Made by a program: the position numbers and the translations under genes. Below, piece by piece: positions 3,173-62,579 of a DNA stretch of 64,000 bases (its first letter is position 1; each line of letters starts with the position of its first letter). The notes under the pieces were generated by a model. The model worked only from the letters and a program-made list of their open reading frames with translations. It was not told where the DNA came from and did no database searches. Source of the stretch: Pseudolabrys sp. (GTDB lineage: Bacteria > Pseudomonadota > Alphaproteobacteria > Rhizobiales > Xanthobacteraceae); the NCBI GenBank assembly GCA_035626335.1, contig DASPNW010000023.1, forward strand, positions 14,738-78,737, given 5' to 3'.

Positions 3173-3200
3173 ATGTCCGCCTTGGGTCAAAAACGGACGT
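3173..3200. repeat. Palindromic intergenic repeat (GTCCG family)
   Basis: ATGTCCGCCTTGGGTCAAAAACGGACGT, 6 bp from the SBP stop codon. Confidence 0.85.
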
Positions 3201-3206
3201 GGCAAC

Positions 3207-4190
3207 CTATTCGATCACCTCGTCAGCGCGGGCGAGCAGCGACGGCGGCACGTTCAGGCCGAGTGCTTTCGCGGTCTTGAGATTGATGACCAATTCGTAT
3301 TTGTTCGGAGTTTGCACCGGCAAATCAGCGGGCTTTTCACCTTTAAGAATGCGGTCTACGTAGCCCGCCGCTTGCCGATACTGATCGACGCGATCCGGCC
3401 CATAGGACATCAGACCGCCAAGCGTCACAAAGATGCGGTCCACGTAAACGGTAGGCAGGCGATATTTTGCTGCAAGAGCAACAATCGACTTACGATGGAC
3501 GATCGCCCCGCCCCCTTGCCCAACGAGCATGGCGCTCGAGGGGCGCGCGAAGGCCGCCACCGCGCTTTCGAGGTCGGCGGGGCTGCGAAAGTTCATCACA
3601 GCCAACTCCAAGTGAAGCGAGGATGCAACGGTTTGGATGGCACTGACCTGACCGACACCGGCCGCTGTCGCGTTATCGCGAATTACCGCTACGCGCGTTA
3701 CACTTGGTGCGATCTCTTTGAGAAGTTCGAGCCACTTCCCGCCGATAGAATATTCAAAACTGGCAAATCCCGTGGCGTTGCCCCCCGGCCGCGACAAACT
3801 GTCGATATAACCAGCAGCGACCGGATCGGGGACAGTTGCAAATACGATTGGTATGCTGCTCGTCGCTTGAAGCAGAGGGCCCGTTGCCGAACTCCCCGGT
3901 GCCAGAATGACGTCGGGCGCAAGTGCTACCAATTCGGCGGCGAATTTGCGCGTCTGCTCGGTATTTCCCTTTCCCCAACGCTTCTCAATTTGGACATTTC
4001 GCCCTTCGACCCATCCCAGTTGGACGAGCCGCTCCGTAAACGCCTTCATGCGGGCTTCATACTCTGGATCATCAGCCCCGCTTGGCAACAGCACGCCGAC
4101 GCGCCGCACGCGCTCATTTTGCTGCGCACGCACCACAACCGGCCAAGTTGCAGCCCCGCCAAGTAGCGCGATGAATTGGCGCCGTCGCAT
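3207..4190 (-). CDS. ABC transporter substrate-binding protein (ABC_sub_bind type), orphan
   Basis: MRRRQFIALLGGAATWPVVVRAQQ leader; ends INLKTAKALGLNVPPSLLARADEVIE; start moved to MRRR. Confidence 0.9.
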   Translation of the reverse strand: MRRRQFIALLGGAATWPVVVRAQQNERVRRVGVLLPSGADDPEYEARMKAFTERLVQLGWVEGRNVQIEKRWGKGNTEQTRKFAAELVALAPDVILAPGSSATGPLLQATSSIPIVFATVPDPVAAGYIDSLSRPGGNATGFASFEYSIGGKWLELLKEIAPSVTRVAVIRDNATAAGVGQVSAIQTVASSLHLELAVMNFRSPADLESAVAAFARPSSAMLVGQGGGAIVHRKSIVALAAKYRLPTVYVDRIFVTLGGLMSYGPDRVDQYRQAAGYVDRILKGEKPADLPVQTPNKYELVINLKTAKALGLNVPPSLLARADEVIE

Positions 4191-4238
4191 GTAGCCCCCC
4201 TCATGCAAGGCTTAAAGGCTAGCACTTTGCGGCCCCTC

Positions 4239-4267
4239 ATGTCCGCTATGGGTATAACGCGGCTCAT
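4239..4267. repeat. Degenerate palindromic repeat (GTCCG family)
   Basis: ATGTCCGCTATGGGTATAACGCGGCTCAT. Confidence 0.65.
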
Positions 4268-4287
4268 GCGACGCGGCAAAACGACCA

Positions 4288-4428
4288 TTATTCGATCAGG
4301 GTGTCGGCGCGCAGCAAGAACTTTTCAGGAATCGTGAGGCCGATAGCTTTTGCGGTCCTTAGATTGATCGCTAGCTCAAACTTCGTAGGCTGCTCAATTG
4401 GAATATCTTTTGGCTTTTGGCCTTGCAA
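4288..4428 (-). pseudogene. C-terminal 46-codon fragment of an ABC_sub_bind SBP
   Basis: [46 protein letters not shown]; no upstream coding sequence, 5' break abuts a repeat. Confidence 0.85.
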
Positions 4429-4429
4429 A

Positions 4430-4454
4430 GTCCGCTTTGCCCAATAGCGGACAT
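4430..4454. repeat. Palindromic intergenic repeat (GTCCG family)
   Basis: GTCCGCT-TTGCCCAAT-AGCGGAC-AT, perfect 7-bp arms. Confidence 0.9.
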
Positions 4455-4461
4455 CACTGAC

Positions 4462-5877
4462 CTACTGTGCCGCGACCTTTTCGGCGTCCGGCAACTTCCA
4501 CACCTTGTCGAAGAATTCCTTCTTCGGCCCGTAGAAACGCGCCATCAGTTCGAACTTGCGAGCGGGATCGGTGGGGACCCAATTCGATTCCTTTCCCGCC
4601 GGAGCCTTTGGTCCGAAATAGACGTCGATTGAGCCATCGGCGTTCTTCTGAATCTCGGGAATTTGCGATGAGCGGCTCGCGCGCGGCATATTCTTAATTA
4701 ATGCGTGTGTCTCCCGGTCGTAGGCGGTCACCGACCAGTATTGGTCGACCGGCACGTTTGAGGGCACGTTGAGCCGATAGGTCTTGGCTCCGTCGAAGGA
4801 GTCGCCGTCCTTGTCCCGGATTGAGATCGAATAGAACTGTCCCGCTCCAAGCCGTTTGAGGCCTATAAAGGCATAACTGTAAGCCATCCCACGTTCGTCG
4901 ACGGGATACACATTTATGTCGGCATAGCCATCCTGCATCACTTTGATCAAGTCCGGAGGGGCCGGTGCCGTCCAGCGACTTGCAGCCGAGAAAAAGGGCG
5001 GGAGGCCCGCGTCATATTTGGCCTCGAGAAACGCGTGTGCTTCTCGCGCCGCGGAAGTAAGCAACGTCTTAGTCGCGTCACTGGGCGTAAAGGGCTTTCC
5101 CTTTTCAATTCCGAGGGTCTTGAGCTGGTCGATCATCGCGCGGTCGCGTTGCAGCCATGGCTCGTTCTGCACCATGCGGTCGAGATTGTTGAAGAAGCTC
5201 GCGTCGTAGCGAATCGTGGAGTCGAAGTCGATGTCCTTGACGTCCGTGAACACCGTTGGTGGCGGATTGGCGGCCTGCGCCAGTGGATAAATTTTCATCC
5301 TTTTGCCGTATGCGATTGCTGCATCGACATCGGCCGGGCTGTGGCTCTTGAGGTTCGCCCGGAACAGCATATAGCCGCCGAATGTATCGGACTGCCGTGC
5401 CGCGTAGCCTTTTGGCGGAGTCCGCTTGTAGCCCGGCGGCAAGATCAGAAGCTTGACGCCCTTTCCCTTGTCGATGCCGAACCGGCCGGCATCCTCAAGC
5501 GGCATCTGCCACACCGTGACGATATTGGCGTTGAACGAGCCGCCGGCGTCTGCGGGCGGCAAGTCGAGTACGATGGGGCCGTCCTTCGTGTTGTAGAAGG
5601 CCATGAAGTAGAGCGCGTCCGGGTTCGGCGTCAGCGTTTGGTTTTTAGAATCGAGTGGCCTGCCCCAATAGATGACCTGATTCACCTTGCCGTTCGTCTT
5701 GCTGAGCATTTCCTGAACCATCAAATCATAGTTCACGACCGGCATGCCCCAGACGACAGCTTCAAACGCGCGCCGCTCTAAAATTCGGCGGTTCAGTTCA
5801 TCAGGAGATGGGGTCTGCGCGTGTGATGACACCGCTGCGAAGATCAAGATTAAAGCAGAAATCAACGCGTTTCTCAT
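4462..5877 (-). CDS. DUF1254/DUF1214 domain exported protein
   Basis: Signal peptide MRNALIS...; LTPNPDALY; QYWSVTAYD; NWVPTDP...FELMARFYGP; RBS GGAGGGG. Confidence 0.85.
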   Translation of the reverse strand: MRNALISALILIFAAVSSHAQTPSPDELNRRILERRAFEAVVWGMPVVNYDLMVQEMLSKTNGKVNQVIYWGRPLDSKNQTLTPNPDALYFMAFYNTKDGPIVLDLPPADAGGSFNANIVTVWQMPLEDAGRFGIDKGKGVKLLILPPGYKRTPPKGYAARQSDTFGGYMLFRANLKSHSPADVDAAIAYGKRMKIYPLAQAANPPPTVFTDVKDIDFDSTIRYDASFFNNLDRMVQNEPWLQRDRAMIDQLKTLGIEKGKPFTPSDATKTLLTSAAREAHAFLEAKYDAGLPPFFSAASRWTAPAPPDLIKVMQDGYADINVYPVDERGMAYSYAFIGLKRLGAGQFYSISIRDKDGDSFDGAKTYRLNVPSNVPVDQYWSVTAYDRETHALIKNMPRASRSSQIPEIQKNADGSIDVYFGPKAPAGKESNWVPTDPARKFELMARFYGPKKEFFDKVWKLPDAEKVAAQ

Positions 5878-5966: not shown

Positions 5967-6040
5967 ATGATCCGCTTTACCCCCAAGAGCGGACATGTAG
6001 GTGCAATCCGTGGTGCCTGCTAAGGGCCAATAGCGGACAT
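5967..6040. repeat. Compound (two-unit) palindromic repeat
   Basis: TCCGCTTTACCCCCAAGAGCGGACAT-gtag-GTGCAATCCGTGGTGCCTGCTAAGGGCCAATAGCGGACAT. Confidence 0.85.
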
Positions 6041-6094: not shown

Positions 6095-6622
6095 TTAAAC
6101 CTCGTCCTGTCGCGAACGAATGGGTGCCGGTACCCGGCGAACCGGACGTTTGCCACTTTTCATATCAGCGAGTGATCCGTTAGACGGGAATCTGTTTGAT
6201 CCAAATCTCAGAACCAGAACGGCAAAAGACAACAAAAGAATTGCTCCCGAAACAATGAGGATATCCATCCCTGTTCTATGCTCTGCGCTAACGAGTTCTA
6301 TGAGAACTCGAGCCAAAGCGGTGATGGCAATATAAATCAGGTAACGGACTGGCAGCCTTGTCGTTTTGAAGTAAATTCCAACCATTGCGCCGATTTCTAG
6401 ATAGATAAACAGGAGCAGGAGATCTCCGAGATCGGCTCGCCCTCGATGCACCATGCCCAGGAAAGCCCCGACAGCGGACCACACGGTGGTCGCACCAAGC
6501 GCGAACAGCGCCAGATAATGAAAAGTATCGACCAACAGCGTTCCGAATGCATCAGAGAAAGTCCTCAGGTCCGCGTGAAGACTGGAGGCGAGCCGGTTAA
6601 ATCGGTGTGTGTATTCGGACAT
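6095..6622 (-). CDS. Phosphate-starvation-inducible PsiE family membrane protein
   Basis: DLLLLFIYLEIGAMVGIYFKTTRLPVRYLIYIAITALAR; RBS GGAGAA. Confidence 0.85.
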   Translation of the reverse strand: MSEYTHRFNRLASSLHADLRTFSDAFGTLLVDTFHYLALFALGATTVWSAVGAFLGMVHRGRADLGDLLLLFIYLEIGAMVGIYFKTTRLPVRYLIYIAITALARVLIELVSAEHRTGMDILIVSGAILLLSFAVLVLRFGSNRFPSNGSLADMKSGKRPVRRVPAPIRSRQDEV

Positions 6623-6664: not shown

Positions 6665-6709
6665 GTGCGGTGCAATCCGAGATCTCTGCCAAGGGCCAAA
6701 AGCGGACAT
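6665..6709. repeat. Repeat unit, 34/40 identical to 6001-6040
   Basis: GTGCAATCCGAGATCTCTGCCAAGGGCCAAAAGCGGACAT at 6670-6709, 2 bp from the SBP stop. Confidence 0.85.
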
Positions 6710-6711
6710 GC

Positions 6712-7707
6712 CTAGTCGATCACCTGGTCTGCGCTCACCAGGATTGAAGACGGCACCTCAAGGCCAAGCGCCTTGGCGGTTTTGAGATTGACCGCAATCT
6801 CAAATTTGGTTGGCACCTGCACAGGTAGATTGGCCGGTTTCTCTCCGCGCAAGACGCGATCAACATAAGGCGCTGCGCGTCGGACGATATCCGCGAGATC
6901 GGGACCGTACGAAAGCAAACCACCCGCAACGACAACGTCGCGCCAGGGATAAACCGCCGGTACGTGGTTGCGGGCTGCCAGTGATATCGCCGTTTCTCGA
7001 TTGATGAATAAGAAAAAGTCCGCCATTGCGACAAAGCCACTTCCAGGCTCGCGCCCCAGATCGGTTATTACCGCTTCAAGCTCGGCAACACTGTGTATAG
7101 GCGCCGCAATCGGCCGCACATTGAGGGACCGCGCGGACGCTTCAAAATCAGGCATGTAATACTTGCCGTGTCCGGGCGCCGTGTCCGGATCGAAGATCAT
7201 GGCTGCCCGTGTCACTGAGGGTGCGATCTGCTTGAGCAATTCCATCCACTTGCCGCCAATCGAAGACTCGGAATTATGAAACCCCGTGATGTTTCCGCCG
7301 GGATGGGACAGGCTCGCGACAAAGCCTTCACCGACCGGATCGGAGACAATAGCGAAGACAATTGGAATTGTACGCGTTTCGCGTTGAAGGGCGGCGGTGA
7401 CGGGTGTTCCGAATGAGAGAATGACATCCGGCTGAAAGGCTACCAACTCCTTTGCAAACGTTCGCATGCGATCAACGTTGTCACCGGCCCAGCGAACGTC
7501 CGTGTGTGGCTTGCGACCTCCGCTCCAGCCCAACTTCGCGAGCTCATCGTCGAACAAAGAAAGCCAACTTCTCGCCCTGGCGTCAGTCTCATTGAACGCC
7601 ATAAGGACGCCGATACGTCGTGCACGGTCCGTCTGTTGTGCATGGGCGACAACAGGCCAGACGGGGGCGGCACTGCCGAGGAGTTTGATGAAATCGCGCC
7701 GTCTCAT
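6712..7707 (-). CDS. ABC transporter substrate-binding protein (ABC_sub_bind type), orphan
   Basis: MRRRDFIKLLGSAAPVWPVVAHAQQ; ends VNLKTAKALGLEVPSSILVSADQVID. Confidence 0.9.
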   Translation of the reverse strand: MRRRDFIKLLGSAAPVWPVVAHAQQTDRARRIGVLMAFNETDARARSWLSLFDDELAKLGWSGGRKPHTDVRWAGDNVDRMRTFAKELVAFQPDVILSFGTPVTAALQRETRTIPIVFAIVSDPVGEGFVASLSHPGGNITGFHNSESSIGGKWMELLKQIAPSVTRAAMIFDPDTAPGHGKYYMPDFEASARSLNVRPIAAPIHSVAELEAVITDLGREPGSGFVAMADFFLFINRETAISLAARNHVPAVYPWRDVVVAGGLLSYGPDLADIVRRAAPYVDRVLRGEKPANLPVQVPTKFEIAVNLKTAKALGLEVPSSILVSADQVID

Positions 7708-7791: not shown

Positions 7792-7818
7792 ATGTCCGCT
7801 TTGGGCCAAAAGCGGACT
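7792..7818. repeat. Palindromic intergenic repeat (near-consensus copy)
   Basis: ATGTCCGCTTTGGGCCAAAAGCGGACT. Confidence 0.9.
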
Positions 7819-7833
7819 TGGGCCCGTTTTCGG

Positions 7834-8091
7834 TTAGCGGCGGTTTCCGTAAAGCGTATAGTTCGGACAGACGGCCACATCAAAACCGGTGGGTGTTCCG
7901 CCCGGTGTGTAGCCCATTTCGGGATGGCAGCCGCGCGGAACCGGGTTGCAGCCGACGACGGTGCAGGCAATCTGCGGCTGTTCAGCAGCGGCAGCCTTCG
8001 TGTGACGCTTTTTGTGCGCAGGCGCCGCGCTGGCCGGCATCAACGCAAGAGCAAGCACAACGGCCGAAGTAAGGGGTACGATTGTTTTCAT
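7834..8091 (-). CDS. Small secreted Cys-containing hypothetical protein
   Basis: Signal peptide MKTIVPLTSAVVLALALMPASA; CTVVGCNPVPRGCHP; RBS AGAGGA. Confidence 0.7.
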   Translation of the reverse strand: MKTIVPLTSAVVLALALMPASAAPAHKKRHTKAAAAEQPQIACTVVGCNPVPRGCHPEMGYTPGGTPTGFDVAVCPNYTLYGNRR

Positions 8092-8800: not shown

Positions 8801-10024
8801 TCACCCAATGAGAGCCGCCAGCGCACTCGCCACATCAATCGACATGACGGCGATCTGAGCCATGACAAATGCCTGCCCCTGTGTCGTCGTCAGGCTGTCT
8901 ATTTCCTCGGTCGTGAGGCCGGCGATGGCATCCGTGCTTAGACCGGGGATGCCACTCGTACTCGACAATGCGCTGAAGTTGGTCGTCGTCATTCCGGCGA
9001 TCTGCGCACTCGTGAAGCCGCCGGCCTGGGTTGACGTGAAAGCGGCGATTTCGGTCGTCGAAAGGCTATTGACCCCGGCCGTTGTCAAGGCGCCGATGTC
9101 CGCCGCGGTCAGAGCACCAACCTGGGTCTCAGTCAGGTTAGTGATCGTGGTGGTGTTTAGCCCGACAACCTGCACCGGCAACAACAGTGCGAGCGCCAAA
9201 GCGTCAAGATTGTCTATCGACAGACCATTGAGCTGGGCCCAATAGAGGCCTTGCACCTGCGCCGCGGTCAGCGCCGCTACCTGCGCGGTGGTGAGATTGT
9301 TGAGCACCGTCATGTTCAGCGAGCCGATCTGGCCCGCGGTCAGTGCACCGGCCTGCGTGGTAGACAGGCTCTGCAGCTCGGTCGTGGTCAGCTGAGCGAT
9401 CTGGCTGGCATTTAGCGCCGCCACCTGCGTGGCCGCCAGTGCCGCCACCTGCGTGGTGGTCAGATCGCCAATCACTGTCGTGCTCAGGCCGGCGGTCTGC
9501 CCGGCGCCGAGCTTGGTGACGTCAAGCGCGCCCAGGTTGTCGATCGACAGCGCATTGAGCTGGGTCGTGGTCAGGCCCTGCACCTGCACCGTGCTCAGCG
9601 CCGCCACCTGCGTGGTGGTGAGATTGTTGAGGACTGTCGTGCTCAGCGAGCCGATCTGGGCCGCGGTCAGCGCGCTGGCCTGCGTGGTCGACAGGTTCTG
9701 CAGTTCCTCCGGCGACAATGCGCCGATCTCGCCGGCGGTAAGCGCGCTCACCTGCGTCGACGTCAGCTCGGTGATCTGGGTGGTGGTGAAAGCCTGTATC
9801 TGCGCCTCGATCAGACCGCCCATGGTCGTCGAGGAGATCGCCTGAAGCTGCGCCGTCGCCAGGTATTGCAGGGCGGTCGATGTGAGCGCATTGACCTGAT
9901 CCGCATTCAGGACCGCCAGCTGGGTCGTGGAAAAAGCCGCGATGCTGGTGGTTTTCAGCGAGCTGAAGGTTGTCGTCGAAAGACCGGCAATTTTTGCGGC
10001 GCTGATGAAGGGAATAACAGACAT
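8801..10024 (-). CDS. Thr/Ala/Leu-rich octapeptide-repeat protein
   Basis: About 45 units of L-[ST]-x-x-Q-[IVL]-x-[AG]; internal duplication at 327-nt spacing. Confidence 0.85.
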   Translation of the reverse strand: MSVIPFISAAKIAGLSTTTFSSLKTTSIAAFSTTQLAVLNADQVNALTSTALQYLATAQLQAISSTTMGGLIEAQIQAFTTTQITELTSTQVSALTAGEIGALSPEELQNLSTTQASALTAAQIGSLSTTVLNNLTTTQVAALSTVQVQGLTTTQLNALSIDNLGALDVTKLGAGQTAGLSTTVIGDLTTTQVAALAATQVAALNASQIAQLTTTELQSLSTTQAGALTAGQIGSLNMTVLNNLTTAQVAALTAAQVQGLYWAQLNGLSIDNLDALALALLLPVQVVGLNTTTITNLTETQVGALTAADIGALTTAGVNSLSTTEIAAFTSTQAGGFTSAQIAGMTTTNFSALSSTSGIPGLSTDAIAGLTTEEIDSLTTTQGQAFVMAQIAVMSIDVASALAALIG

Positions 10025-10217
10025 TCAGGCAACCCATTCCGACTGGCTGACGCGGTCCCGCCGCGGGACGAATGTAAGAATGCCGGGATGGGTGGAGTTT
10101 CACATTGATGCATTTATTGATTCTGACGATTTTTGGCTTTGGATATTGGTAGTTAAAGCGTTCAAAAAAATTCCGTCAAATTCAATCGCCCCGATTAGGA
10201 ATTCGTTCATGCCTAAC

Positions 10218-10239
10218 GTCGTTTTGGGCCAAAAGCGAC
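10218..10239. repeat. Variant palindromic repeat
   Basis: GTCGTTTTGGGCCAAAAGCGAC shares the TTTGGGCCAAAAGCG core. Confidence 0.6.
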
Positions 10240-10264
10240 CTTCTCTTCTCTTCTCTTCTCTTCT
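10240..10264. repeat. Simple sequence repeat (CTTCT)5
   Basis: Five perfect pentamer copies directly after the palindrome. Confidence 0.9.
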
Positions 10265-10301
10265 GGCATCAATAAAAAAGCGAATAACAATGCGTCAACG
10301 G

Positions 10302-11237
10302 CTAGCGGTATGCGATCAGCGATTGCAACTTGGCTTTCAACCTTGGCCGCCACTCGGCAAATTGTAGCGGCAGTGGCGCCGCGGGGATTTCGGTGGAGCT
10401 GTCATAGGGCAGCAAACGCACGCCCGGTTCAGGTGCATATTGATTAAGGGCGTCGCCCTGTCCTGCCTCCAGGCGGTCGATCGCTCGCATGAGCACGGCT
10501 TCGGTAACCTTCTCTTGCCGCGCAAGGCAGAGATTCCCCGCGCAGGAGTGATAAAGGTAGGTCTGGCCATAAAATCTCAAAACCTTTTCATCGTGCTCCG
10601 CCAAAGCACGAAGCAAGACCGGCGAAAATACAGCGACATGCGAGAACGTTGGAAACATCAGTGAATATTGCAAGCCACGAAGCAAGCGCACCCCAACCTG
10701 ATAGTTACTTACGATGTGCCGCTTAGAATCGATGTGACGGATAAGCGCGATCAGCATATCCAGATCAACAGCGTTCTGAGTAAAGAATGTCGCCGCATTA
10801 TGGGGAGCGGGCGAAATGGCGTGGGTCACACCAGCCCGACGGAGCAGGATAACTTCGCGACCAAAAGCATAGCCGGTGGTCAGGCTTTCGGCTGGAAAAT
10901 CGAATACAAGCCTGGCGGGGTCGAACACGAACACATCCGCGTCGAGCCAAATCACCCGTTGATAGCCGGCATCCAATCGCTCGCGCGTCGCGACTAGACG
11001 GGCGAGGTTGGTGATGGCTTGGGGATTCTTGCTGCCACGCGACAGATATTCCGGACCGCACAAATTGTAGAATTCGTCGCCCGCCAGCGAGTACTCGTAG
11101 TCACGCAACGCCGCCCATTTCTGCACGCTGTGCAGGCAACGCTGTATCCAGGCAGGGATGTTTTGGTTACGGAATGTCTGGATAACGATCGTATCCGATC
11201 GTCTTGACGGGCTCGACAAAAAACAACTCCTTTTCAA
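10302..11237 (-). CDS. Hypothetical protein, possible GT-A-like nucleotide-sugar transferase
   Basis: RVIWLDADVFVFD (DxD); start uncertain. Confidence 0.5.
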   Translation of the reverse strand: MKRSCFLSSPSRRSDTIVIQTFRNQNIPAWIQRCLHSVQKWAALRDYEYSLAGDEFYNLCGPEYLSRGSKNPQAITNLARLVATRERLDAGYQRVIWLDADVFVFDPARLVFDFPAESLTTGYAFGREVILLRRAGVTHAISPAPHNAATFFTQNAVDLDMLIALIRHIDSKRHIVSNYQVGVRLLRGLQYSLMFPTFSHVAVFSPVLLRALAEHDEKVLRFYGQTYLYHSCAGNLCLARQEKVTEAVLMRAIDRLEAGQGDALNQYAPEPGVRLLPYDSSTEIPAAPLPLQFAEWRPRLKAKLQSLIAYR

Positions 11238-11314
11238 GACCTGGCGAGTGGATCAATAAGCCGCGCGTTTGGCTCCGAACCGGTCAATCAAATCTCACAC
11301 CGTAATTCAATGCA

Positions 11315-11341
11315 ATGCCCGCTTTGCGCCGTTAGCGGAGT
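11315..11341. repeat. Degenerate palindromic repeat
   Basis: ATGCCCGCTTTGCGCCGTTAGCGGAGT. Confidence 0.6.
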
Positions 11342-11471
11342 GCATCACCTGTCAATCCGGTCGCATTTTTTTCGTTTGGTGCGCGAAAGCCATATAGCAG
11401 CGCCCACCAGTACGAAAACTATCACGAGCTTCAGGCCCATTTTTTTGCTTGTCGTACCTGGCACGCCAACA

Positions 11472-13681: not shown

Positions 13682-13683
13682 CC

Positions 13684-16856: not shown

Positions 16857-16882
16857 GTGCGCCGAGGGCCATTAGCGGACAT
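16857..16882. repeat. Repeat unit (right-arm type)
   Basis: GTGCGCCGAGGGCCATTAGCGGACAT. Confidence 0.7.
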
Positions 16883-17174: not shown

Positions 17175-17202
17175 ATATCCGCATTGCGTCAAAGGCGGGC
17201 AT
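17175..17202. repeat. Degenerate palindromic repeat
   Basis: ATATCCGCATTGCGTCAAAGGCGGGCAT, 23/28 to ATGTCCGCTTTGGGTCAAAAGCGGACAT. Confidence 0.7.
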
Positions 17203-18053: not shown

Positions 18054-18119
18054 GCGGCTTTTATCGCCGAAAGTGGCATTCGTGACTGGAGTTTCCGCTC
18101 AAGGGCCAGAAGCGGACAT
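18054..18119. repeat. Compound palindromic repeat
   Basis: GCGGCTTTTATCGCCGAAAGTGGCAT...TCCGCTCAAGGGCCAGAAGCGGACAT, 9 bp from the SBP stop. Confidence 0.75.
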
Positions 18120-21695: not shown

Positions 21696-21841
21696 CTCTG
21701 CTGCTCCCGCTGACACCGCCAGCGAACCCTTAACCTATGGTCAAAACGTGGCAGGCACAGGAGCGAATCTCACAAAAGACGAAGAAAAATGGCGCGAGAA
21801 CTCGGCGGCAATTGAATACCGCCGCCGCGAACGTCAACCAC

Positions 21842-22192: not shown

Positions 22193-22222
22193 TTGTCCGC
22201 TTTAGTTCCAAATAGCGGACAT
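22193..22222. repeat. Palindromic intergenic repeat
   Basis: GTCCGCT-TTAGTTCCAAAT-AGCGGAC-AT. Confidence 0.85.
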
Positions 22223-38237: not shown

Positions 38238-38266
38238 GTGTCCGGCTTGGGCCCACTAGCGGACAT
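38238..38266. repeat. Palindromic intergenic repeat
   Basis: GTGTCCGGCTTGGGCCCACTAGCGGACAT. Confidence 0.75.
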
Positions 38267-56592: not shown

Positions 56593-59500
56593 TCACGCTT
56601 GTCCTGGTGACTTCGCAATGGTCGCGGCTGTACGCGGCAGGACGATCCTAAATTCGGTAAACTCGCCCGGCCGAGTGTCGACATCCACAGATCCGCCGTG
56701 TTGCTTGACGATGATGTCGTGGCTGATTGAAAGGCCAAGCCCGGTGCCTTCCCCGGCCGGTTTGGTCGTGAAGAACGGATTGAACATTTTGTCCCTCACC
56801 TCGGCCGGAATACCGGTTCCGTTATCGCGGATGCTGATTTCGACTCGGTCGCCGAGATCCTTTGTTGCAGCCGTGAGCGTAGGTTCGCAGTCGCCGCCGT
56901 TCGTTTCCGTTTTGCGCTTTATCGCTGCGTAGAAGCCGTTTGAGATCAGGTTGAGCAGCGCTCGTGTAATCTCCTGCGGAAAGAGATCGGCCTCGCCGGC
57001 GGCGGGGTCAAACGATCTCTCCAATGTGATATTGAAGTTCTGCTTCTCCGCCCGAGCCCCATGATACGCGAGGTTGAGGCTTTCCTCGACAAGGGTATTG
57101 ATCTCGACCGGCCGACGCTCGCCCGTGCCCTCGCGCGAATGCAACAACATATTCTTGACGATCGCGTCGGCTCGCCTGCCGTGCTGTACAACCTTGTCGA
57201 GATTGCCACGCAGGATCTTGGTCAGCCCGTCAATCTCCTCGCGCGCCTTGTCGTCGATCGATAGGCCGCTCAAGACATCTTGTAATTCATCGATCAATTC
57301 GCCGGAGATCCCCGAAAAGTTATTTACGAAATTGAGCGGGTTTTTGATCTCGTGCGCGATGCCGGCGGTCAATTGACCAAGTGAGGCAAGCTTTTCCGTC
57401 TGAACCAGGCGATCTTGCGCAGCGTGCAAATCCTCCAGCGACTTCGCCAGCTCACGCGTGCGGGTTTGCACGCTTTCGAACAATCGCACGTTCTCGATCG
57501 CGATTGCTGCCTGGTCGGCGAAAGTCGTCGCCAGCTCAATCTGCTTGTCAGTGAACGGACGAACGTCAGTGCGCGTCAAGCTCAGCACCCCGATCGCAAC
57601 GCCCTCGCGCAGCATTGGGACGGAGAGAACCGTGCGATAATCGCCTAATTTCTGCACCTCAGCCAAAGTGTACTCCGGATCGGCCTTCACGTCGGGGATA
57701 TGAACCGCGCGGCCCTCAAGCAAGGCGCGCCCGAACGCAGAGCCTCGCTCGGCCTTGATTGGAATGTCTTTGACGTAGTCCATGAAAGCCCGAGGGAAGC
57801 CGTGAGCCTCCGCGCGATAGAAGGCTCCACCTTTTTCGCGGGTAATGACGGTTTTTTCCGCATCGCAGAGCCGCGCAGCTGATTCAACGAGGGTTTGCAG
57901 CACCGCCCGTAAATCAAAGGTCGAGCGGCTGATAACCTTGAGCACATCGGCTGTGGCAGTCTGCTGCTGGAGGGACTCACGCAGTTCTTTTAGGAGCCGC
58001 GTATTTTCAATTGCGATCACCGCCTGCGCAGCGAAATTCTGTACCAGCTCAATCTCTTTGTCGCTGAACGGCCGTACCTCTTTGCGATAGATGGCGAATG
58101 CGCCGACAAAATCACCCTCCCGCAGCATCGGCACGACAAGCAATGCGCGCATGCCGGCAACATCAGCCGAGCCGACCGCCAACGGATGGCCGGCCAGGTA
58201 GGCGGAATCCTTTCTGACATCCGCTACTTGAATCGGTTTGCGTGTTACTGCGGTGCGAGTCGCGGGAACGTCCTGACTGAGCGGTATGACGGCCGTTTTC
58301 CATTGCTGCGTGAAAGCCTCCGGCATATCGCCCTGAAACGCAGCGTTGCGGAGCCCGCCTCCTTCGTTCAGCCACATTGCGCCATAATTTGCATCGCAGA
58401 TCTGTGTTGCCTTCTCCAGCATCGCGTTGAATACGGGCTCCAATTCCCCGGGCGAGCTGCTGATGACCTTCAGGACTTCGGATGTCGCAGTCTGCTGCTC
58501 CAACGATTCCCGCAGCTCATTGAGCAATCGGACATTCTCGATTGCAATCACGGCCTGGTCGGCGAAGGTTGTCACAAGTTCTATTTGCTTTTGGGTAAAT
58601 GGATTCACCTCATCGCGGGTGAGCACAAAAACGCCGATCGTCGTCCCCTCACGCAACAGCGGCACGCCTAGGCCAGTTCTGTGGCCGAAGGCCTTCTGGT
58701 AACCCGTCGCCTGGTACTCGGAATCGGCCACCACGTCCGGAACATGGATCGTCTTACCTTCCAGTGCCGCTCGGCCCGTGATGCTGCTTCGATCCAGTTG
58801 TAACGGGTGTGTGGACGCGTACTGCTCGGCCTCGCGCGAGAAGCCGTAGTTCGCGGCAAGCCAGTACAACTCTTCCTCGCGTTGAAAAATGACACCCTTG
58901 TCGGCCGCGCAAAGTTGGGCAGCCGACTTGGTCAGCGTATCAAGCACGGTTTGCAGGTCGAAGGTCGACCGGCTGATAACCTTTAGAACGTCGGCAGCGG
59001 CGGTCTGTTGCTGGAGGGATTCGCGAAGCTCGCTGAGCAGGCGTGTATTCTCGATCGCGATCACGGCTTGCGACGCAAAATTCTTGACCAATTCAATTTG
59101 TCTGACGGTGAACTGCCGTACCTCCTGGCGATAGATGCCAAAAATGCCTACAAGTTCATGATCCTTGAGCAATGGCACAAGCAGAAGCGTACGTGCGCCC
59201 GCATGTTTCGCGAGTGGATCGTCGGGATCTTCCGTTTGCAAGTCTGCAATATGGACAACTTTCTTTGTCGTCGAGAGCTGCTTTAGAGCGAGTGAAACAC
59301 TCGGTGTAACCGCTGGCATCCGTTCAGTGAACTTGAGAAATCCGAGTGGTGCATTGTGAACGGCGACGCGCCGAAATTGATCGCCTTGGCGAAGCAACAT
59401 GGAGCCAAAACTTGCCTCGCAGATTCGCGTCGCGTTCTCGAGCATGGTCTCGAAAACCGTCTTTAACTCGCCAGGTGACGAGTTGATGACCTTGAGAATT

Positions 59501-59679
59501 TCTGAGGCGGCCGCCAACTGTTGCAGCGCCTCGTCGCGCTCGCTGGTGAGTCGCGCGACACTCGTTTCCTTGCCGATAGCGAGAGAACCGCGGCGGCGCG
59601 CGACCCTCGGCCGGCGCGACAATGTCTTGCGGCGACGCCCTTTGGCCGTCTTCCTGCCTGCTTTGTCGCGCCGTCTCAT
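56593..59679 (-). CDS. Soluble sensor histidine kinase with four GAF domains
   Basis: Four units ending AVIAIEN.RL; AGIAHEIKNPLN; NLISNG; DNGTG; GEGTGLGL; start MRRRDKAG. Confidence 0.93.
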   Translation of the reverse strand: MRRRDKAGRKTAKGRRRKTLSRRPRVARRRGSLAIGKETSVARLTSERDEALQQLAAASEILKVINSSPGELKTVFETMLENATRICEASFGSMLLRQGDQFRRVAVHNAPLGFLKFTERMPAVTPSVSLALKQLSTTKKVVHIADLQTEDPDDPLAKHAGARTLLLVPLLKDHELVGIFGIYRQEVRQFTVRQIELVKNFASQAVIAIENTRLLSELRESLQQQTAAADVLKVISRSTFDLQTVLDTLTKSAAQLCAADKGVIFQREEELYWLAANYGFSREAEQYASTHPLQLDRSSITGRAALEGKTIHVPDVVADSEYQATGYQKAFGHRTGLGVPLLREGTTIGVFVLTRDEVNPFTQKQIELVTTFADQAVIAIENVRLLNELRESLEQQTATSEVLKVISSSPGELEPVFNAMLEKATQICDANYGAMWLNEGGGLRNAAFQGDMPEAFTQQWKTAVIPLSQDVPATRTAVTRKPIQVADVRKDSAYLAGHPLAVGSADVAGMRALLVVPMLREGDFVGAFAIYRKEVRPFSDKEIELVQNFAAQAVIAIENTRLLKELRESLQQQTATADVLKVISRSTFDLRAVLQTLVESAARLCDAEKTVITREKGGAFYRAEAHGFPRAFMDYVKDIPIKAERGSAFGRALLEGRAVHIPDVKADPEYTLAEVQKLGDYRTVLSVPMLREGVAIGVLSLTRTDVRPFTDKQIELATTFADQAAIAIENVRLFESVQTRTRELAKSLEDLHAAQDRLVQTEKLASLGQLTAGIAHEIKNPLNFVNNFSGISGELIDELQDVLSGLSIDDKAREEIDGLTKILRGNLDKVVQHGRRADAIVKNMLLHSREGTGERRPVEINTLVEESLNLAYHGARAEKQNFNITLERSFDPAAGEADLFPQEITRALLNLISNGFYAAIKRKTETNGGDCEPTLTAATKDLGDRVEISIRDNGTGIPAEVRDKMFNPFFTTKPAGEGTGLGLSISHDIIVKQHGGSVDVDTRPGEFTEFRIVLPRTAATIAKSPGQA

Positions 59680-59761
59680 CGCCTCCCCCGAGGCTGGAAC
59701 ACGGCACAAAGTAGCACACTGGAGGGAGTGGGATATGAGGTCGGCCAAAAGCCGTTTGGCC

Positions 59762-59789
59762 GTATCCGGCACCGGCCAAAAACGGACAC
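59762..59789. repeat. Degenerate repeat
   Basis: GTATCCGGCACCGGCCAAAAACGGACAC. Confidence 0.5.
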
Positions 59790-60116: not shown

Positions 60117-60340
60117 GACAAACCTCCAAGACGAGCACAGAACTGCCTTCCGTTCCGTGGTGAATCCCGCGGCATATTTTCGAAATGGCGCGGCCGCGTA
60201 AGGCTCAATATTTGTAAGCACTCGCCTGCGTTGCGACGATCTGATCCGCCAATTAACCTGACCAGGTAACGTTAAGGTTGAGAGCGTTCGTGCTGCCAAT
60301 GCATACAGAATCACCGGGCGAAACTTGTCGCCTTGGCGGC

Positions 60341-60361
60341 TCCGAACGCATTAGCGGACAA
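60341..60361. repeat. Degenerate repeat
   Basis: TCCGAACGCATTAGCGGACAA. Confidence 0.45.
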
Positions 60362-60408
60362 TGAAGACGTTAAGTGCGCGTTGAGTCAGAGGCGGGAAAC
60401 GGCCCACC

Positions 60409-61383
60409 TCACTCAATTACCTCATCCGCCCGTAGCAGAAACGGTCCTGGGATCGTCAGGCCGAGCGCCTTGGCGGTCGTTAGATTGATGACAAGCTCGA
60501 ACTTCGTTGGCTGCTCGACAGGGATATCGCCAGGTTTCGTCCCCCGCAAAATCTTGTCCACGTAGTCTGCCGAATGTCGGAACAGATCGGAATAGTTTGG
60601 TCCGTAGGACATGAGGCCCCCGGCTTGAACAAAATCGCGGGTACTGAAGACCGTCGGCAGCTGCGCCCCAAGCGCAAGCGTGAGGACGCGCGTGCGGTTG
60701 GCAACAACGAGTTGATCGACCACGACGTAAAGAGCGTCCGCTTTGGACTTAAGCACCTCGAATCCAGGAGCGATATCCTCCGGCCGCCGGATTACGAGTG
60801 GTGCAACTTCGAGGCCCAACCTGCGAGCTGCGGCCTGGGTCTCGCCCATCTCCAGCACGGGCTGGGCGTTGTCAACATTGTACATAATTGCCAACCGGCG
60901 TAACCGCGGGACAACCTCACGCAAGAGTTCGATTCGTTTGCCGGCAAGTTCGCCCGCCTGGATCGATAGCCCGGTAACGTTGCCGCCCGGTTTGGCGAGA
61001 CTTGCGACCAAACCATTTCCGACCGGGTCGATCCCCACCGCAAAAACAATCGGGATGACCGTCGTCGCCTGCTTTACGATGGGGACGGCGGTTCCGACCG
61101 TGACAATAACGTCGACCTTAAGGCGAACAAACTCTGCCGCAATCTCGGCGTAGCGCTCGGAGCGGCCCTCCGACCAGCGATACTCTATCGCGACGGTGCG
61201 GCCCTCGATCCAGCCGAGTTCGCGCAGACGCGCCACAAAAGCAGCCGTCCATGGGCCAAAGGCCGAAGCATCCGCACCGAGGAACCCGATGGTCGGCAAC
61301 TTGCCCGATTGCTGCGCGCGCGCGGCGAGCGGCCATGCAGCCGCCGCCCCGCCGACAAGCGATATGAAATCGCGCCGCCTCAT
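60409..61383 (-). CDS. ABC transporter substrate-binding protein (ABC_sub_bind type), orphan
   Basis: MRRRDFISLVGGAAAAWPLAARAQQ; ends INLTTAKALGLTIPGPFLLRADEVIE. Confidence 0.92.
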   Translation of the reverse strand: MRRRDFISLVGGAAAAWPLAARAQQSGKLPTIGFLGADASAFGPWTAAFVARLRELGWIEGRTVAIEYRWSEGRSERYAEIAAEFVRLKVDVIVTVGTAVPIVKQATTVIPIVFAVGIDPVGNGLVASLAKPGGNVTGLSIQAGELAGKRIELLREVVPRLRRLAIMYNVDNAQPVLEMGETQAAARRLGLEVAPLVIRRPEDIAPGFEVLKSKADALYVVVDQLVVANRTRVLTLALGAQLPTVFSTRDFVQAGGLMSYGPNYSDLFRHSADYVDKILRGTKPGDIPVEQPTKFELVINLTTAKALGLTIPGPFLLRADEVIE

Positions 61384-61443
61384 CACCAACCCGAAGCTCA
61401 AAGGCGCATCGTAGCGGTTCAAACCGGCCAACCGGAAGGGGCC
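61384..61443 (-). promoter_or_regulatory. Conserved promoter/leader module
   Basis: CCCTTCCGG-N18-TACGAT-N24-ATG; very similar to 7708-7770. Confidence 0.6.
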
Positions 61444-61502
61444 TTGGCGCGCTTTTAGGCGAAGGTCTAGGTCGGTGCGGTCAGTCTTGCGAGACCGCGG
61501 CG

Positions 61503-62429
61503 CTAGCGTATCGGTTCATTTTTCTTCTGTTCGAATGGATTGAATTTCCGCAGTTTCTCGAGCAGACCGCCGCGTTGCGGGGCCTTCGGGTTGCCCTTTT
61601 GTTGACCGCGATTCTGCTGCTGCGGAGCGCCGGGCTGCCGGAGATTCTTCGGCCGCTGGTTGTTCGGCTGCGGGCGGTTCGGTCCGCGCAATTGGCGACG
61701 CTGGATCGTCATCTGCCGGCCAATATTGTGCGTAGCAAACAGCCGCTGCACCATGCCGCGGTCACGCGCCGCTTCCTGTGGCGAGATTCGAAACGGCAGG
61801 GCAGCGAACTGCCCGCCCAGGCCGCGCCGGATGGCAAATGCGCTCGACCCTTGTGTCAGCGCGCCGAGCCGCGCGCCCTGCGGATTGAAAACCTCTATCC
61901 GGCCCACACGCCCATCGGCATCCGGATAGAGTTTGATTTTGGCCTCACCTGCTGCGGCGTTGTCCGGAACATCGACGACCCCGGTTGTGCCGCGAATACC
62001 GAGATTGGCAGTCGGAGTCGAAATCGTCATATCGCCGGTCTTTGCAACCATGCTGGCGACAAACGCGACCGTGCCGCGGGCGATGTTGAGCACCGCTTTG
62101 TTGCCTTTGGCGCCCTCCTCGTAGACGAATTCGTTGACGACGACACGCGCATTTGCAGTGAGGCTGAGGGTCGTCTCGTCGTCGAAGGTAACGCCAAGCG
62201 ATGAGTTGGCGCCGGTCTGCAAGACGTCTTTTTTGTAGACAGCGTCGCTCACATTCAGCGTGGTGGGCGGCATGCTGCCGCGCGTCACCGTCGTAATGCC
62301 TTGCAGTGTCGCGATTTGTCCTATGGGGTCGTTGGCATCCTGACTCGCGTCCGTTTGATTTTGCGCGCGTGCCACGAATGGCCACGCAATCGCGCCGGTG
62401 GCAAGTGCGATAAACTTGCGGCGCCTCAT
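61503..62429 (-). CDS. FecR-domain exported protein with low-complexity Gln/Pro/Arg tail
   Basis: MRRRKF leader; VLQTGANSSLGVTFDDETTLSL.ANARV, G.VAFV, TPTANLGIRGT. Confidence 0.8.
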   Translation of the reverse strand: MRRRKFIALATGAIAWPFVARAQNQTDASQDANDPIGQIATLQGITTVTRGSMPPTTLNVSDAVYKKDVLQTGANSSLGVTFDDETTLSLTANARVVVNEFVYEEGAKGNKAVLNIARGTVAFVASMVAKTGDMTISTPTANLGIRGTTGVVDVPDNAAAGEAKIKLYPDADGRVGRIEVFNPQGARLGALTQGSSAFAIRRGLGGQFAALPFRISPQEAARDRGMVQRLFATHNIGRQMTIQRRQLRGPNRPQPNNQRPKNLRQPGAPQQQNRGQQKGNPKAPQRGGLLEKLRKFNPFEQKKNEPIR

Positions 62430-62453
62430 TCCCATTTCCATTCCCATTCCCAT
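62427..62453 (-). repeat. Hexamer repeat (ATGGGA)n giving five in-frame ATGs
   Basis: ATGGGA ATGGGA ATGGAA ATGGGA ATG. Confidence 0.85.
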
Positions 62454-62551
62454 TCTCGAACTTCAGGACGCATCTTAGCGACTCGAGCAGAGATATTGAA
62501 AGCGTTTGGCGATGTCAGGCTTGGGATGAGACTTTGCAACAGGACATTGGC

Positions 62552-62579
62552 ATGCCCGCTTCCTCCGAAAAGGGGACAT
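62552..62579. repeat. Degenerate palindromic repeat
   Basis: ATGCCCGCTTCCTCCGAAAAGGGGACAT. Confidence 0.6.

Follow-up and report, generated by a model that had tools for sequence, protein, structure and literature searches.

The window analysed here, a 64-kb stretch of a Pseudolabrys-like (Xanthobacteraceae) contig from a peat metagenome, carries a minus-strand gene run (3.2-11.2 kb) punctuated by same-orientation palindromic sites, several of them of the TGGCCC class. These copies, the others in the window and two gene remnants that lie next to copies are collected in Table 1. As a sequence-only reading of this DNA had stated, all copies are intergenic, outside called genes (for the called starts at the 11315 and 17175 copies, see Table 1).

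Table 1. Palindrome copies and gene remnants in the 64-kb window, with profile scores where they apply
Feature	Position	Strand	Score or call	Context
Single palindrome, C class (minus-strand centre TGACCC)	3173..3200	-	20.1 bits	6 nt past stop of PF04392 solute-binding gene 3207-4190(-); convergent gap, GNAT gene 2625-3134(+) on other side
Marginal decayed copy, left arm intact, right arm degenerate	4239..4267	-	9.5 bits	~21 nt past stop of PF04392 gene remnant
PF04392 (ABC_sub_bind) 3' gene remnant, last ~46 codons	4288..4428	-	46-aa call, weak PF04392 match	translation aligns C-terminally with the four PF04392 paralogues in the window; truncated 5' edge directly adjoins palindrome 4428-4454
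Single palindrome, centre TGGGCA (TGGCCC-class variant)	4428..4454	-	18.3 bits (profile position 4430)	7 nt past stop of DUF1254/DUF1214 gene 4462-5877(-)
B-class unit (minus-strand centre GGGGGTA) of two-unit compound	5967..5996	-	20.6 bits (profile position 5971)	90 nt upstream of DUF1254 gene start
TGGCCC-class unit of 5967-6040 compound, distal arm decayed	6013..6040	-	21.3 bits (profile position 6015)	54 nt past stop of psiE 6095-6622(-)
Single TGGCCC-class palindrome, distal arm decayed	6682..6709	-	18.2 bits (profile position 6683)	2 nt past stop of PF04392 gene 6712-7707(-)
Best-preserved copy, ATGTCCGCTTTGGGCCAAAAGCGGACTT, TGGCCC class	7792..7819	-	31.8 bits	14 nt past stop of 85-aa gene 7834-8091(-); 85 nt upstream of PF04392 start
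Decayed TGGCCC-class copy, arms shortened	10218..10240	-	11.0 bits (profile position 10221)	62 nt past stop of gene 10302-11219(-); adjoins (CTTCT)n microsatellite
Decayed copy in divergent gap	11315..11345	-	17.1 bits	ATG at 11310, just upstream, taken as start by gene caller; palindrome supplies first ~13 codons of this ORF
Copy, distal arm decayed	16857..16882	-	12.9 bits (profile position 16866)	between RND pump gene (stop 16821) and histidine-kinase remnant (stop 16915)
Histidine-kinase C-terminal remnant, 57 aa	16915..17088	-	HATPase_c	between 16857 and 17175 copies
Decayed copy upstream of kinase remnant	17175..17202	-	12.8 bits (profile position 17176)	overlaps called start of 239-aa gene 17201-17920(+)
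TGGCCC-class copy	18091..18119	-	17.4 bits (profile position 18094)	9 nt past stop of PF04392 gene 18129-19121(-)
Copy with atypical 12-nt middle, ATTTGGAACTAA on minus strand	22193..22222	-	12.0 bits (profile position 22194)	convergent gap, 21737-22192(+) and Peripla_BP_6 gene 22266-23507(-)
Isolated copy, centre GGGCCC	38238..38266	-	12.9 bits (profile position 38245)	convergent gap, 37901-38227(+) and DUF3551 gene 38316-38888(-)

No copy in the window is perfect, and the exact pattern ATGTCCGCT-N5..20-AGCGGACAT had no match there. With at most one mismatch allowed, the 9-mer gave 37 matches compared to 16.4 ± 4.0 in shuffled sequence, a number reached by no shuffle. We derived a profile from 281 hairpins in relatives and scored the window with it, using the best score of 20 shuffles (9.3 bits) as the cut-off, and found 13 solid copies and one marginal copy (4239). 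The sequence-only reading had counted about 20 copies spread window-wide. The family is indeed far above chance, but only 13 to 14 copies exceed every shuffle, and the spread was overstated: the 14 copies all lie within 3.1-38.3 kb, 12 of them in 3.1-22.3 kb and one at 38.2 kb, with none credible further on. Scores in the chance range were obtained for the sites claimed at 17942 (6.3 bits), 27670 (3.5 bits), 60341 (5.3 bits; 48 nt past a PF04392 gene) and 62552 (5.4 bits) and for the lone exact half-site at 33586 (5.1 bits), while 59762 fell below threshold (7.2 bits with a first small profile) and 49381 had no profile match; some of the chance-range sites, such as 60341, may be decayed relics. 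The same pattern was found in more than 119 genome loci, the majority from Pseudolabrys and other Xanthobacteraceae, and the window palindromes belong to this family, which is large, occurs across the Proteobacteria and is apparently undescribed; the element has no match in Rfam.

The unit of the family consists of two inverted 11-bp arms (ATGTCCGCTTT and AAAGCGGACAT) around an asymmetric 6- or 7-bp centre. The full element, as seen in relatives, comprises three palindromes and measures ~119 bp overall, with 17-nt spacers (this length in 147 of 196 unit pairs) and a fixed order of centres, from TGGCAC or TGGCCC through GGGGGTA to TGACCC. Elements had one (n = 205), two (n = 118) or three (n = 39) units, but never more. 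Compound copies had already been recognized in the sequence-only reading, although their fixed-order, three-unit architecture was missed; the compound at 5967-6040 joins a GGGGGTA unit to a TGGCCC unit, the same as in relatives, with a spacer of 16 nt compared to the family's 17 nt. Likewise, the GGG and CCC loop types described there are real and are the three centre classes seen on the plus strand, on which TGGCCC and TGACCC of the minus strand read as GGGCCA and GGGTCA, and GGGGGTA reads as TACCCCC.

Placement relative to genes is strongly biased, which had been overlooked: 11 of the 13 solid window copies lie 0-70 nt past a stop codon, and in relatives the elements occupy mainly gaps onto which gene 3' ends face and only rarely divergent gaps, while those with several units mostly point the same way as the gene upstream (38:5). 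Orientation is predicted as well by the G-rich (leading) strand as by genes (29:12 either way). The commonest neighbour of an element is a periplasmic binding-protein gene, and malE and hisJ are the classical REP cases. Moreover, soil metatranscriptome contigs connect gene 3' ends to the hairpins. The placement, the commonest neighbour and these contigs would suit REP/BIME-type extragenic palindromes that act chiefly as RNA, such that hairpins in 3' UTRs stop 3'-to-5' exonucleases, reduce read-through or, very near the stop, make terminating ribosomes stall, with any association with a recombinase incidental or relevant only to the spread of the element. Pointing in the same direction, single transitions that keep a G.U pair in the sense strand outnumber those that form C.A (167:116), the region has no excess of canonical intrinsic terminators (28 compared to 23 ± 5 in shuffled sequence), and in Bradyrhizobium, REP elements with three stem-loops are transcribed within 3' UTRs (PMC5082802).

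Nevertheless, we consider a chiefly RNA-based role rather unlikely. The G.U excess is mostly one of C-to-T over G-to-A and could reflect mutational asymmetry, and complementary double changes in the arms are not above expectation (at position 6, 12 T-A pairs compared to ~12 expected), whereas the arm sequence is kept across bacterial classes, which a simple decay barrier would not need. The arms are thus conserved as sequence and not as pairing, which suggests recognition by a protein. In addition, no T-run follows the hairpins, the predicted fold mis-pairs the three identical stems, the centres in Klebsiella-type prophages are opposite in orientation to transcription, and gene-poor stretches hold dense clusters of elements. 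An RNA role also leaves unexplained the inverted bracket around a recombinase gene and the joints at centre borders (see below). When transcribed, copies probably fold into 3' RNA hairpins as well, and these may additionally affect the mRNA.

Among 73 site-flanked ORFs, only one had inverted flanks, and this ORF encodes a PF00589 tyrosine recombinase. The protein is Xer-like and has 210 aa, consisting of the catalytic domain only; it matches Xer-type enzymes in their C-terminal domain only, and by eye we read its catalytic residues as present (LRGCD, HSLRRT, LGHT and RYL). We collected homologues by protein identity alone and then inspected their flanks, and found the recombinase gene between inverted palindrome copies in every context examined. 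The bracket has the form C unit, 17 nt, B' unit, gene, B' unit, 17 nt, C unit, with the two sides inverted, and was seen in ~6 different neighbourhoods, with one identical protein in at least three contexts. A homologue from Pseudoxanthomonas (56% identical) has a C-type site 31 nt past its stop, and homologues on E. coli IncY and Pantoea plasmids (~51-54% identical) are also flanked by sites; the association of gene and site holds in both Alpha- and Gammaproteobacteria. No homologue was found in the 64-kb window, and the same metagenomes yielded only fragments.

Exchange joints are found at the centre borders in enterobacterial plasmids and prophages. Specifically, a Klebsiella prophage and an E. 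coli IncY plasmid have 1026 bp in common at 98.5% identity. This stretch opens with GTGCCA, whose first base is base 12 of the palindrome; at its other end, the two agree through the left arm and TCGCTC and part with the first base of the right arm. Similarly, the IncY plasmid, an IncF plasmid and the K-12 Qin prophage are common from the centre onward (TCGCTC in the plasmids, TTGCTC in Qin), while their left arms differ, and in ~25 Klebsiella-type prophages the outer edge of one site forms a junction with at least eight unrelated sequences. Mosaic joints at the borders of a 6-bp centre establish the build of the palindrome as 11 + 6/7 + 11 bp, which is the classic tyrosine-recombinase core. 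The clean joints come from Enterobacterales, whose centres (GTGCCA, TCGCTC) overlap the window classes only in part; the alphaproteobacterial loci yielded no joint as clean as these.

From these sequence comparisons, we think it likely, with a probability of about 0.6, that the palindromes are dispersed tyrosine-recombinase core sites that bound gene modules, with most copies decayed. Where the sequence-only reading had offered a non-autonomous element or a recombination site, the latter is now the best-supported choice, given the 11 + 6/7 + 11 build, the inverted-flanked recombinase and the enterobacterial joints. The enzyme would be a dedicated, distantly Xer-like tyrosine recombinase of ~210 aa that consists of the catalytic domain alone. 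Its gene would lie at another place in the genome, in a unit with inverted copies of these sites on both sides. The enzyme would act as a dimer on the two arms and exchange strands at both centre borders, and the centre (TGGCAC/TGGCCC, GGGGGTA or TGACCC) would set the direction and compatibility class of the site. With exchange at these borders, sites with the same centre could swap adjacent DNA, and site-terminated genes would behave as modules that are excised, inserted or swapped. Such modules would account for sites just past stop codons in a fixed orientation, for same-direction gene runs separated by same-class sites, and for neighbourhoods that differ right outside the sites in close relatives, although post-stop placement and gene co-orientation suit an RNA 3'-hairpin role equally well. 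The same chemistry presumably acts, or once acted, on the window copies, and recombination would move whole genes. We can only infer a purpose for the three-unit array; the model gives its fixed three units and 17-nt spacers no worked-out role. It is also unusual for one enzyme to act on both 6- and 7-bp centres; XerCD acts on 6- and 8-bp centres.

The sites may mark plastic DNA: the truncated PF04392 gene adjoins a site, and the gene neighbourhoods of close relatives differ right outside the sites. In relatives with DUF1254 proteins 87-94% identical to that of the window, the gene and its site (the orthologous copy of that at 4428, in the same position) are kept while the DNA beyond is unrelated, and genes beside sites retain their own upstream regions. 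In P. taiwanensis, a homologous locus of 23 kb lacks these sites altogether. Between two Pseudolabrys species, one orthologous element pair has diverged about as fast as its flanks; together with the lack of a perfect window copy, this indicates that many copies may be dead relics. We found no target-site duplication, as flanking direct repeats were at chance level, and this is expected for conservative site-specific recombination. By the same result the classical MITE reading fails. That the palindromes are MITEs left by an insertion sequence with a DDE transposase is hardly credible, even though they are short, multi-copy and intergenic and metagenome assemblies break at them: they are 28-29 bp perfect palindromes and not terminal inverted repeats around a body, and no DDE transposase is enriched among their neighbours.

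REP/BIME elements with RAYTs, as in E. coli and Pseudomonas, are likewise dispersed extragenic palindromes past gene ends, form mosaic compounds with defined linkers and lack target-site duplications. Since their RAYT gene is also bracketed by copies of the repeat presumably acted on, as is the single bracketed gene here, and since the orientation of our elements follows the G-rich (leading) strand (73:36), we considered whether they are REP/REPIN elements that a RAYT, which is an IS200-like HUH tyrosine transposase, moves by acting on hairpins of single-stranded DNA at replication. This seems very unlikely. The elements carry no conserved GTAG/GGAG tag, as the sequence-only reading had noted, nor a CGTC tag; compound units are in direct and not inverted order; an E. 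coli RayT query had no match in 1.5 Mb (the window plus site-selected loci); and the bracketed gene encodes a true site-specific recombinase (PF00589), of another fold and chemistry. Moreover, group 1 RAYTs are reported to be rare in Alphaproteobacteria (PMC5581495). The CGTC REPs of Alphaproteobacteria (Di Nocera et al. 2013, PMC3733652) and Br-REP1 and Br-REP2 (Hahn et al. 2016, PMC5082802), for which no transposase is known, resemble our elements in host group and 3'-UTR placement, and Br-REP1 of Bradyrhizobium is also a three-palindrome element. However, CGTC REPs have stems of 8-9 bp that begin in AT, loops of 4-5 nt and a CCA tail (PMC3733652), the consensus sequences of the Br-REPs (CCGGAATCTCGAGATTCCGG among them) show no relation to ours (PMC5082802), and GTCCGC/GCGGAC is absent from the text and supplements of both papers. 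Finally, REPs are usually lineage-specific, unlike the arms described here.

Other parallels come from site-specific recombination. Like integron cassettes (attC, IntI), the proposed modules have an ORF followed by an imperfect palindrome in fixed orientation, with same-direction gene arrays, sites between the genes, a tyrosine recombinase and toxin-antitoxin cargo. In contrast to attC, the palindromes lack R''/L''-L'/R' boxes, the GTTRRRY core and extrahelical bases; they are scattered rather than in one array, there is no attI/Pc platform, with genes keeping their own upstream regions, and the recombinase scored 22 bits on the integron-integrase model (cut-off 265). FimB and FimE of the fim switch are also catalytic-domain-only tyrosine recombinases of ~200 aa that use short inverted repeats, but identity is only 21%, and they invert a single promoter segment and do not serve a genome-wide site family. 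In the pdif modules of Acinetobacter plasmids, XerC/XerD sites bound gene modules. The palindromes share with pdif, and with dif/cer/psi, the 28-bp site of 11-bp arm, 6-bp centre and 11-bp arm, and with pdif also the bounding of genes that include toxin-antitoxin pairs and occur in differing contexts, and Xer-type recombinases as the closest enzyme relatives. Their arm sequence is unrelated to dif, however, and their two arms are identical, which implies a homodimer rather than the XerC and XerD pair of pdif. Moreover, a dedicated 210-aa enzyme that has no N-terminal core-binding domain takes the place of the host XerCD, and the palindromes lie on chromosomes, in very many copies, and are arranged in ordered triplets.

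The exact palindrome ATGTCCGCT-N-AGCGGACAT had 0 matches in the window, and we therefore adopted profile searches. Half-sites with at most one mismatch occur 37 times in the window, compared to 16.4 ± 4.0 times in shuffles. Using a profile built from 281 hairpins of relatives, with the threshold set at the best score among 20 shuffled windows, we found that 13 sites exceed the best shuffle and that a 14th, at 4239, lies just above it. The palindrome family described in the sequence-only reading is thus partly confirmed: the family is real, with about 14 copies by profile rather than the roughly 20 claimed, and the profile scores of the claimed sites at 17942, 27670, 33586, 49381, 59762, 60341 and 62552 are inside the chance range. 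Since 12 of the 14 copies lie at 3.1-22.3 kb, the family is clustered and not, as had been proposed, window-wide.

Palindrome copies in the window, with their sense strand and the basis of the call
Position	Sense strand	Basis
3173	minus	profile score
4239	minus	profile score
4430	minus	profile score
5971	minus	profile score
6015	minus	profile score
6683	minus	profile score
7792	minus	profile score
10221	minus	profile score
11315	minus	profile score
16866	minus	profile score
17176	minus	profile score
18094	minus	profile score
22194	minus	profile score
38245	minus	profile score

All copies in the window are intergenic, as judged from gene calls and Pfam matches, and a stop codon lies 0-70 nt before 11 of the 13 solid copies. 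All three intact PF04392 (solute-binding protein) genes of the first 22 kb are followed by a palindrome, 2, 6 and 9 nt past the stop. The minus strand, on which every copy has its sense orientation, also holds a run of eight same-direction genes (3.2-11.2 kb). Two truncated genes lie beside copies: a PF04392 gene is reduced to its last ~46 codons, with its cut edge adjoining the palindrome at 4428, and a histidine-kinase remnant sits between the palindromes at 16857 and 17175. The window contains no tRNA, and we obtained no Rfam match at the gathering threshold in the window and none at E ≤ 1 in four site-rich loci.

A scan of species-representative genomes yielded at least 119 loci with the palindrome pattern; among the loci listed, most belong to Pseudolabrys, other Xanthobacteraceae or uncultured Alphaproteobacteria, and a few to Xanthomonadales and Enterobacterales. 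The middle part of the unit falls into three classes, TGGCAC or TGGCCC, GGGGGTA, and TGACCC, which invariably follow one another in this order where units are combined. Elements consist of single units (205), pairs (118) or threes (39), and never of more; of 196 spacers between units, 147 measure 17 nt, and a complete element spans 118-121 bp. As in BIME-like mosaics, several palindrome types are joined in a set order by defined linkers 3' of genes. Elements of the relatives prefer gaps that face gene 3' ends, and multi-unit elements are co-oriented with the upstream gene in 38 of 43 cases, an orientation that correlates equally well with the G-rich strand. At some loci there are 17-24 units per 8 kb, in part in gene-poor stretches.

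We considered several described repeat families. The absence of the GTAG/GGAG tetranucleotide of RAYT-associated REPs, which the sequence-only reading had pointed out, held in the flank consensus of 278 oriented hairpins; GTAG follows just one copy, at 5997, by chance, and a CGTC tag is likewise absent from the flanks. A tblastn search with E. coli RayT, which is a weak test because it covered 1.5 Mb of window and site-selected loci and not whole genomes, gave nothing below E = 0.2. An assignment to RAYT-associated REPs or REPINs was set aside, since the gene flanked by palindromes encodes a PF00589 tyrosine recombinase and not a Y1/HUH (IS200-like) transposase, and since compound units here are direct (A>B>C, with 17-nt spacers), as opposed to the inverted REP pairs forming a larger hairpin in a REPIN. 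CGTC-tagged REPs, as described in PMC3733652, have a CGTC/TGTC tag, a stem of 8-9 bp starting with AT, a loop of 4-5 nt and a CCA tail. Compared by these features, the family differs, with arms of 9-11 bp, a middle of 6-7 nt (10-11 nt between 9-bp arms) and no tail consensus. Br-REP1/2 of Bradyrhizobium (PMC5082802) have other sequences and another build. Literature searches, run on sequence strings and on topics, turned up no account of the family.

The sequence-only reading had offered two origins for these repeats, a non-autonomous element or a recombination site. The first would make them MITEs, derivatives of a DDE transposon; this was rejected, as flanking direct repeats occur at chance frequency only, giving no target-site duplication, and the neighbours show no enrichment of any transposase. 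As double-stranded DNA, a unit comprises two 11-bp arms (ATGTCCGCTTT / AAAGCGGACAT) on either side of a centre of 6 or 7 bp, with centres in three or more classes. This is the build of a tyrosine-recombinase core site, with inverted arms around an asymmetric crossover region of 6-8 bp.

Two well-known systems of such recombinases were weighed and rejected. Integrons combine IntI integrase with attC sites, which carry R''-L''/L'-R' boxes and a GTTRRRY core; the palindrome arms lack the GTT core, and the associated recombinase scores 22 bits against TIGR02249 (cut-off 265). The dif consensus arms, GGTGCGCATAA/TTATGTTAAAT, are unrelated to the arms of the family, and the enzyme scores 61 bits with XerC (cut-off 335), which sets aside XerCD dif/pdif sites.

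We also considered a role at the RNA level. In a covariation test, pairing-preserving double changes were no commoner than independent mutation predicts; it is the arm sequence, not the structure, that is conserved. Sense-strand transitions that keep a G.U pair outnumber those giving C.A (167 to 116), an excess that is mostly one of C-to-T over G-to-A and so may be mutational. In predicted folds the three units cross-pair, and these folds are ambiguous because the arms are identical. Searching RNA sequencing runs for a 5-kb stretch returned no run, and one soil metatranscriptome of related organisms lent weak support to transcription of the palindromes. The downstream consensus has no T-run, as an intrinsic terminator would have, and a terminator scan flagged no copy except that at 10218, beside a CT microsatellite. 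An RNA-level role of transcribed copies is possible and would be compatible with their being recombination sites. We note that the main variable position of the arm is a CpG (TCCGC, positions 6-7), by far the most mutable, with ~70 C-to-T changes per strand among 635 members, which suggests cytosine methylation and deamination at the motif.

An unbiased search for genes enriched next to palindromes at first returned only PF04392 binding proteins, the commonest neighbours, and common families, and the ORFs between closely spaced palindrome pairs are ordinary genes. Among 73 ORFs with a palindrome on each side, the two flanks have the same orientation wherever this is readable, with one exception: the sole ORF with inverted flanks (locus L107, 1350-1982) encodes a 210-aa tyrosine recombinase (PF00589). 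Two more site-selected loci carry homologues with a palindrome just past the stop, one of them (Pseudoxanthomonas) 56% identical. Further homologues were fetched by protein identity alone, independently of palindromes, and the same bracket surrounds them in about six different neighbourhoods. It consists, upstream, of a TGACCC-class unit, 17 nt and a GGGGGTA-class unit of a special form, its inner arm doubled; inside, of a 5' leader with a stem that sequesters the ribosome-binding site, the gene and a stem-loop; and, downstream, of the upstream units mirrored. An identical protein occurs in at least three contexts. Soil metagenomes contain homologues in great abundance, often on contigs of <2 kb; the 64-kb window holds none, and the fragments found in its metagenomes are not assignable to this genome. 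The catalytic Arg, His-x-x-Arg, His and Tyr can be read in the protein, which aligns to XerA, XerC and XerD over their catalytic domain only, at scores far under their cut-offs, and which resembles FimB in size and single-domain build (21% identity). The partnership of palindromes and recombinase is an association seen in gene neighbourhoods, in that inverted sites bracket the gene in both Alpha- and Gammaproteobacteria.

In bracketed recombinase loci (L296-L307), leader CTCCTCT can pair with AGAGGAG, hiding the ribosome-binding site of the mRNA, and past the stop codon lies a conserved stem-loop (GGGCAGAGCA-GAAA-TGCTCTGCCC); both look regulatory. The protein and downstream DNA of loci L300/L301 are identical to those of L297-L299, and the upstream DNA has been exchanged from the site nearest the gene outward: L300/L301 have a TGGCAC-class unit together with another integrase gene (273 aa), where L297-L299 have a TGACCC-class unit plus the gene of an ECF sigma factor.

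Homologues of the recombinase are present on 487 plasmids, including those of Sinorhizobium, Pantoea, Escherichia and Klebsiella. Sites flank the gene here too, on a Pantoea plasmid and on an IncY plasmid of E. coli: upstream stands an ATGTCyGC...CGCTCA... site, and downstream a stem-loop is followed by GTGCCA and a canonical right arm. The same palindrome occurs in enterobacterial plasmids, the E. coli K-12 Qin prophage and ~25 Klebsiella-type prophages. A block of 1026 bp (98.5% identity) is common to a prophage of Klebsiella and the IncY plasmid of E. coli; its start coincides precisely with base 1 of the centre GTGCCA, and at its other end the left arm and TCGCTC centre are common, with divergence at the first base of the right arm. 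IncY and IncF plasmids and Qin are common from the centre onward (TCGCTC; TTGCTC in Qin), with different left arms. These three joints, all in enterobacterial plasmids and prophages and not in window copies, fall exactly at palindrome base 11/12 or 17/18. Conservative exchange by tyrosine recombinases such as Xer, Cre and lambda Int leaves joints of this kind, at the two borders of a short centre. At one palindrome of the prophages, the outer edge, 82 nt past the upstream stop, is the point of attachment of at least eight unrelated sequences.

The palindromes of Qin (L208) lie at 2016-2043 and 3004-3031; one separates ydfW from flxA, and the other, which is decayed, stands in the ydfV-relB gap, upstream of relB. 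Homology of Qin to IncF and IncY plasmids begins or ends at these palindromes, so that the relBE module is bounded by one. In Klebsiella-type lambdoid prophages (L265, 4355-4382, and ~25 other viral contigs among L215-L292), the palindrome follows a gene for a P-like helicase loader and one for a PerC-like activator, and differing cargo, such as a GAF-EAL protein, is joined at its outer edge.

Given the core-site build, the bracketed recombinase and the enterobacterial joints, the best-supported reading takes the palindromes for core sites, dispersed and for the most part decayed, at which a small dedicated tyrosine recombinase would act and which would bound gene modules; of the two proposed origins, the recombination site is the better supported. 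The cleanest part of the comparative support for this putative exchange mechanism is from Enterobacterales, not from this genome.

The window itself is 99.97% identical to metagenome contigs from peat and wetland, which were of no use for comparing presence and absence of copies, and a plasmid database contained no close relative of it. Its RND pump shares 89-91% identity with proteins of Pseudolabrys sp. MAGs and 85% with that of P. taiwanensis; the neighbours of this operon differ in all relatives examined, and synteny is not kept. In relatives with an 87-94% identical DUF1254 protein, the gene and the following palindrome are kept and the DNA beyond is unrelated. A comparison of filled with empty orthologous sites gave one informative pair, both members of which are filled, and an element that two Pseudolabrys species inherited at an orthologous position has diverged at about the rate of its flanks. 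Metagenome contigs aligned to the window gave other repeat copies and paralogue ends only, and no variants of this genome. The 23 kb around the RND operon of P. taiwanensis (CP031417; L211; 63% GC) hold no copy, and a Pseudolabrys MAG (L210, 58.6% GC) carries six. Lineages seem to vary strongly in copy number.

We tentatively propose, with a probability of about 0.3, that these sites and their enzyme form an unrecognised system of gene-module exchange, widespread among Proteobacteria, in which a dedicated catalytic-domain-only tyrosine recombinase of 200-210 aa would act on genome-wide palindromic core sites of 28-29 bp with at least three or four centre classes. A gene and the site that follows it would form a cassette, able to leave its place and to insert anew wherever a site of its class is found, whether on a chromosome, a plasmid or a prophage, and ordered A-B-C triplets would serve as multi-class landing pads. 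Such a system would amount to a counterpart of the integron that is dispersed and has no platform, and a class of 'hypothetical proteins' (MSALGHKRT..., ...PKADI) would be translated sites. If the core-site reading holds, the hairpins common between genes in Xanthobacteraceae and in many more Proteobacteria would not be passive REPs but crossover sites at work now or until recently, which would provide a concrete mechanism by which the gene neighbourhoods of these soil bacteria turn over so quickly and account for module boundaries in enterobacterial plasmids and lambdoid prophages, for example the relBE region of K-12 Qin. It would also offer a compact recombinase with a short, modular site, and a third partnership of repeat and bracketed gene alongside REP/RAYT and attC/IntI.

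The family also has practical consequences. Metagenome contigs often end at or near palindromes and around the recombinase gene (contigs L004/L005 end at about window 4630, and many contigs are <2 kb); the family breaks short-read, and with them metagenome, assemblies. ORF calls at 11310-11801 (+) and 17201-17920 (+) begin at or beside a palindrome ATG, and translated palindromes give recurrent strings (MSALGQKRT, CPLL..SGH, ..KADI) that appear as 'hypothetical proteins'; thus, the family seeds spurious ORF calls and annotation. A (CTTCT)n microsatellite (10240-10270) directly adjoins the decayed palindrome at 10218, and an otherwise 99.97% identical metagenome contig (L001) differs by 5 nt somewhere within 10024-10302, which the gain or loss of one repeat unit would account for. 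Finally, the long gene at 56593-59772 (-) encodes a multi-GAF histidine kinase and not an RND transporter, and the sole RND pair of the window is that at 12422-16821.
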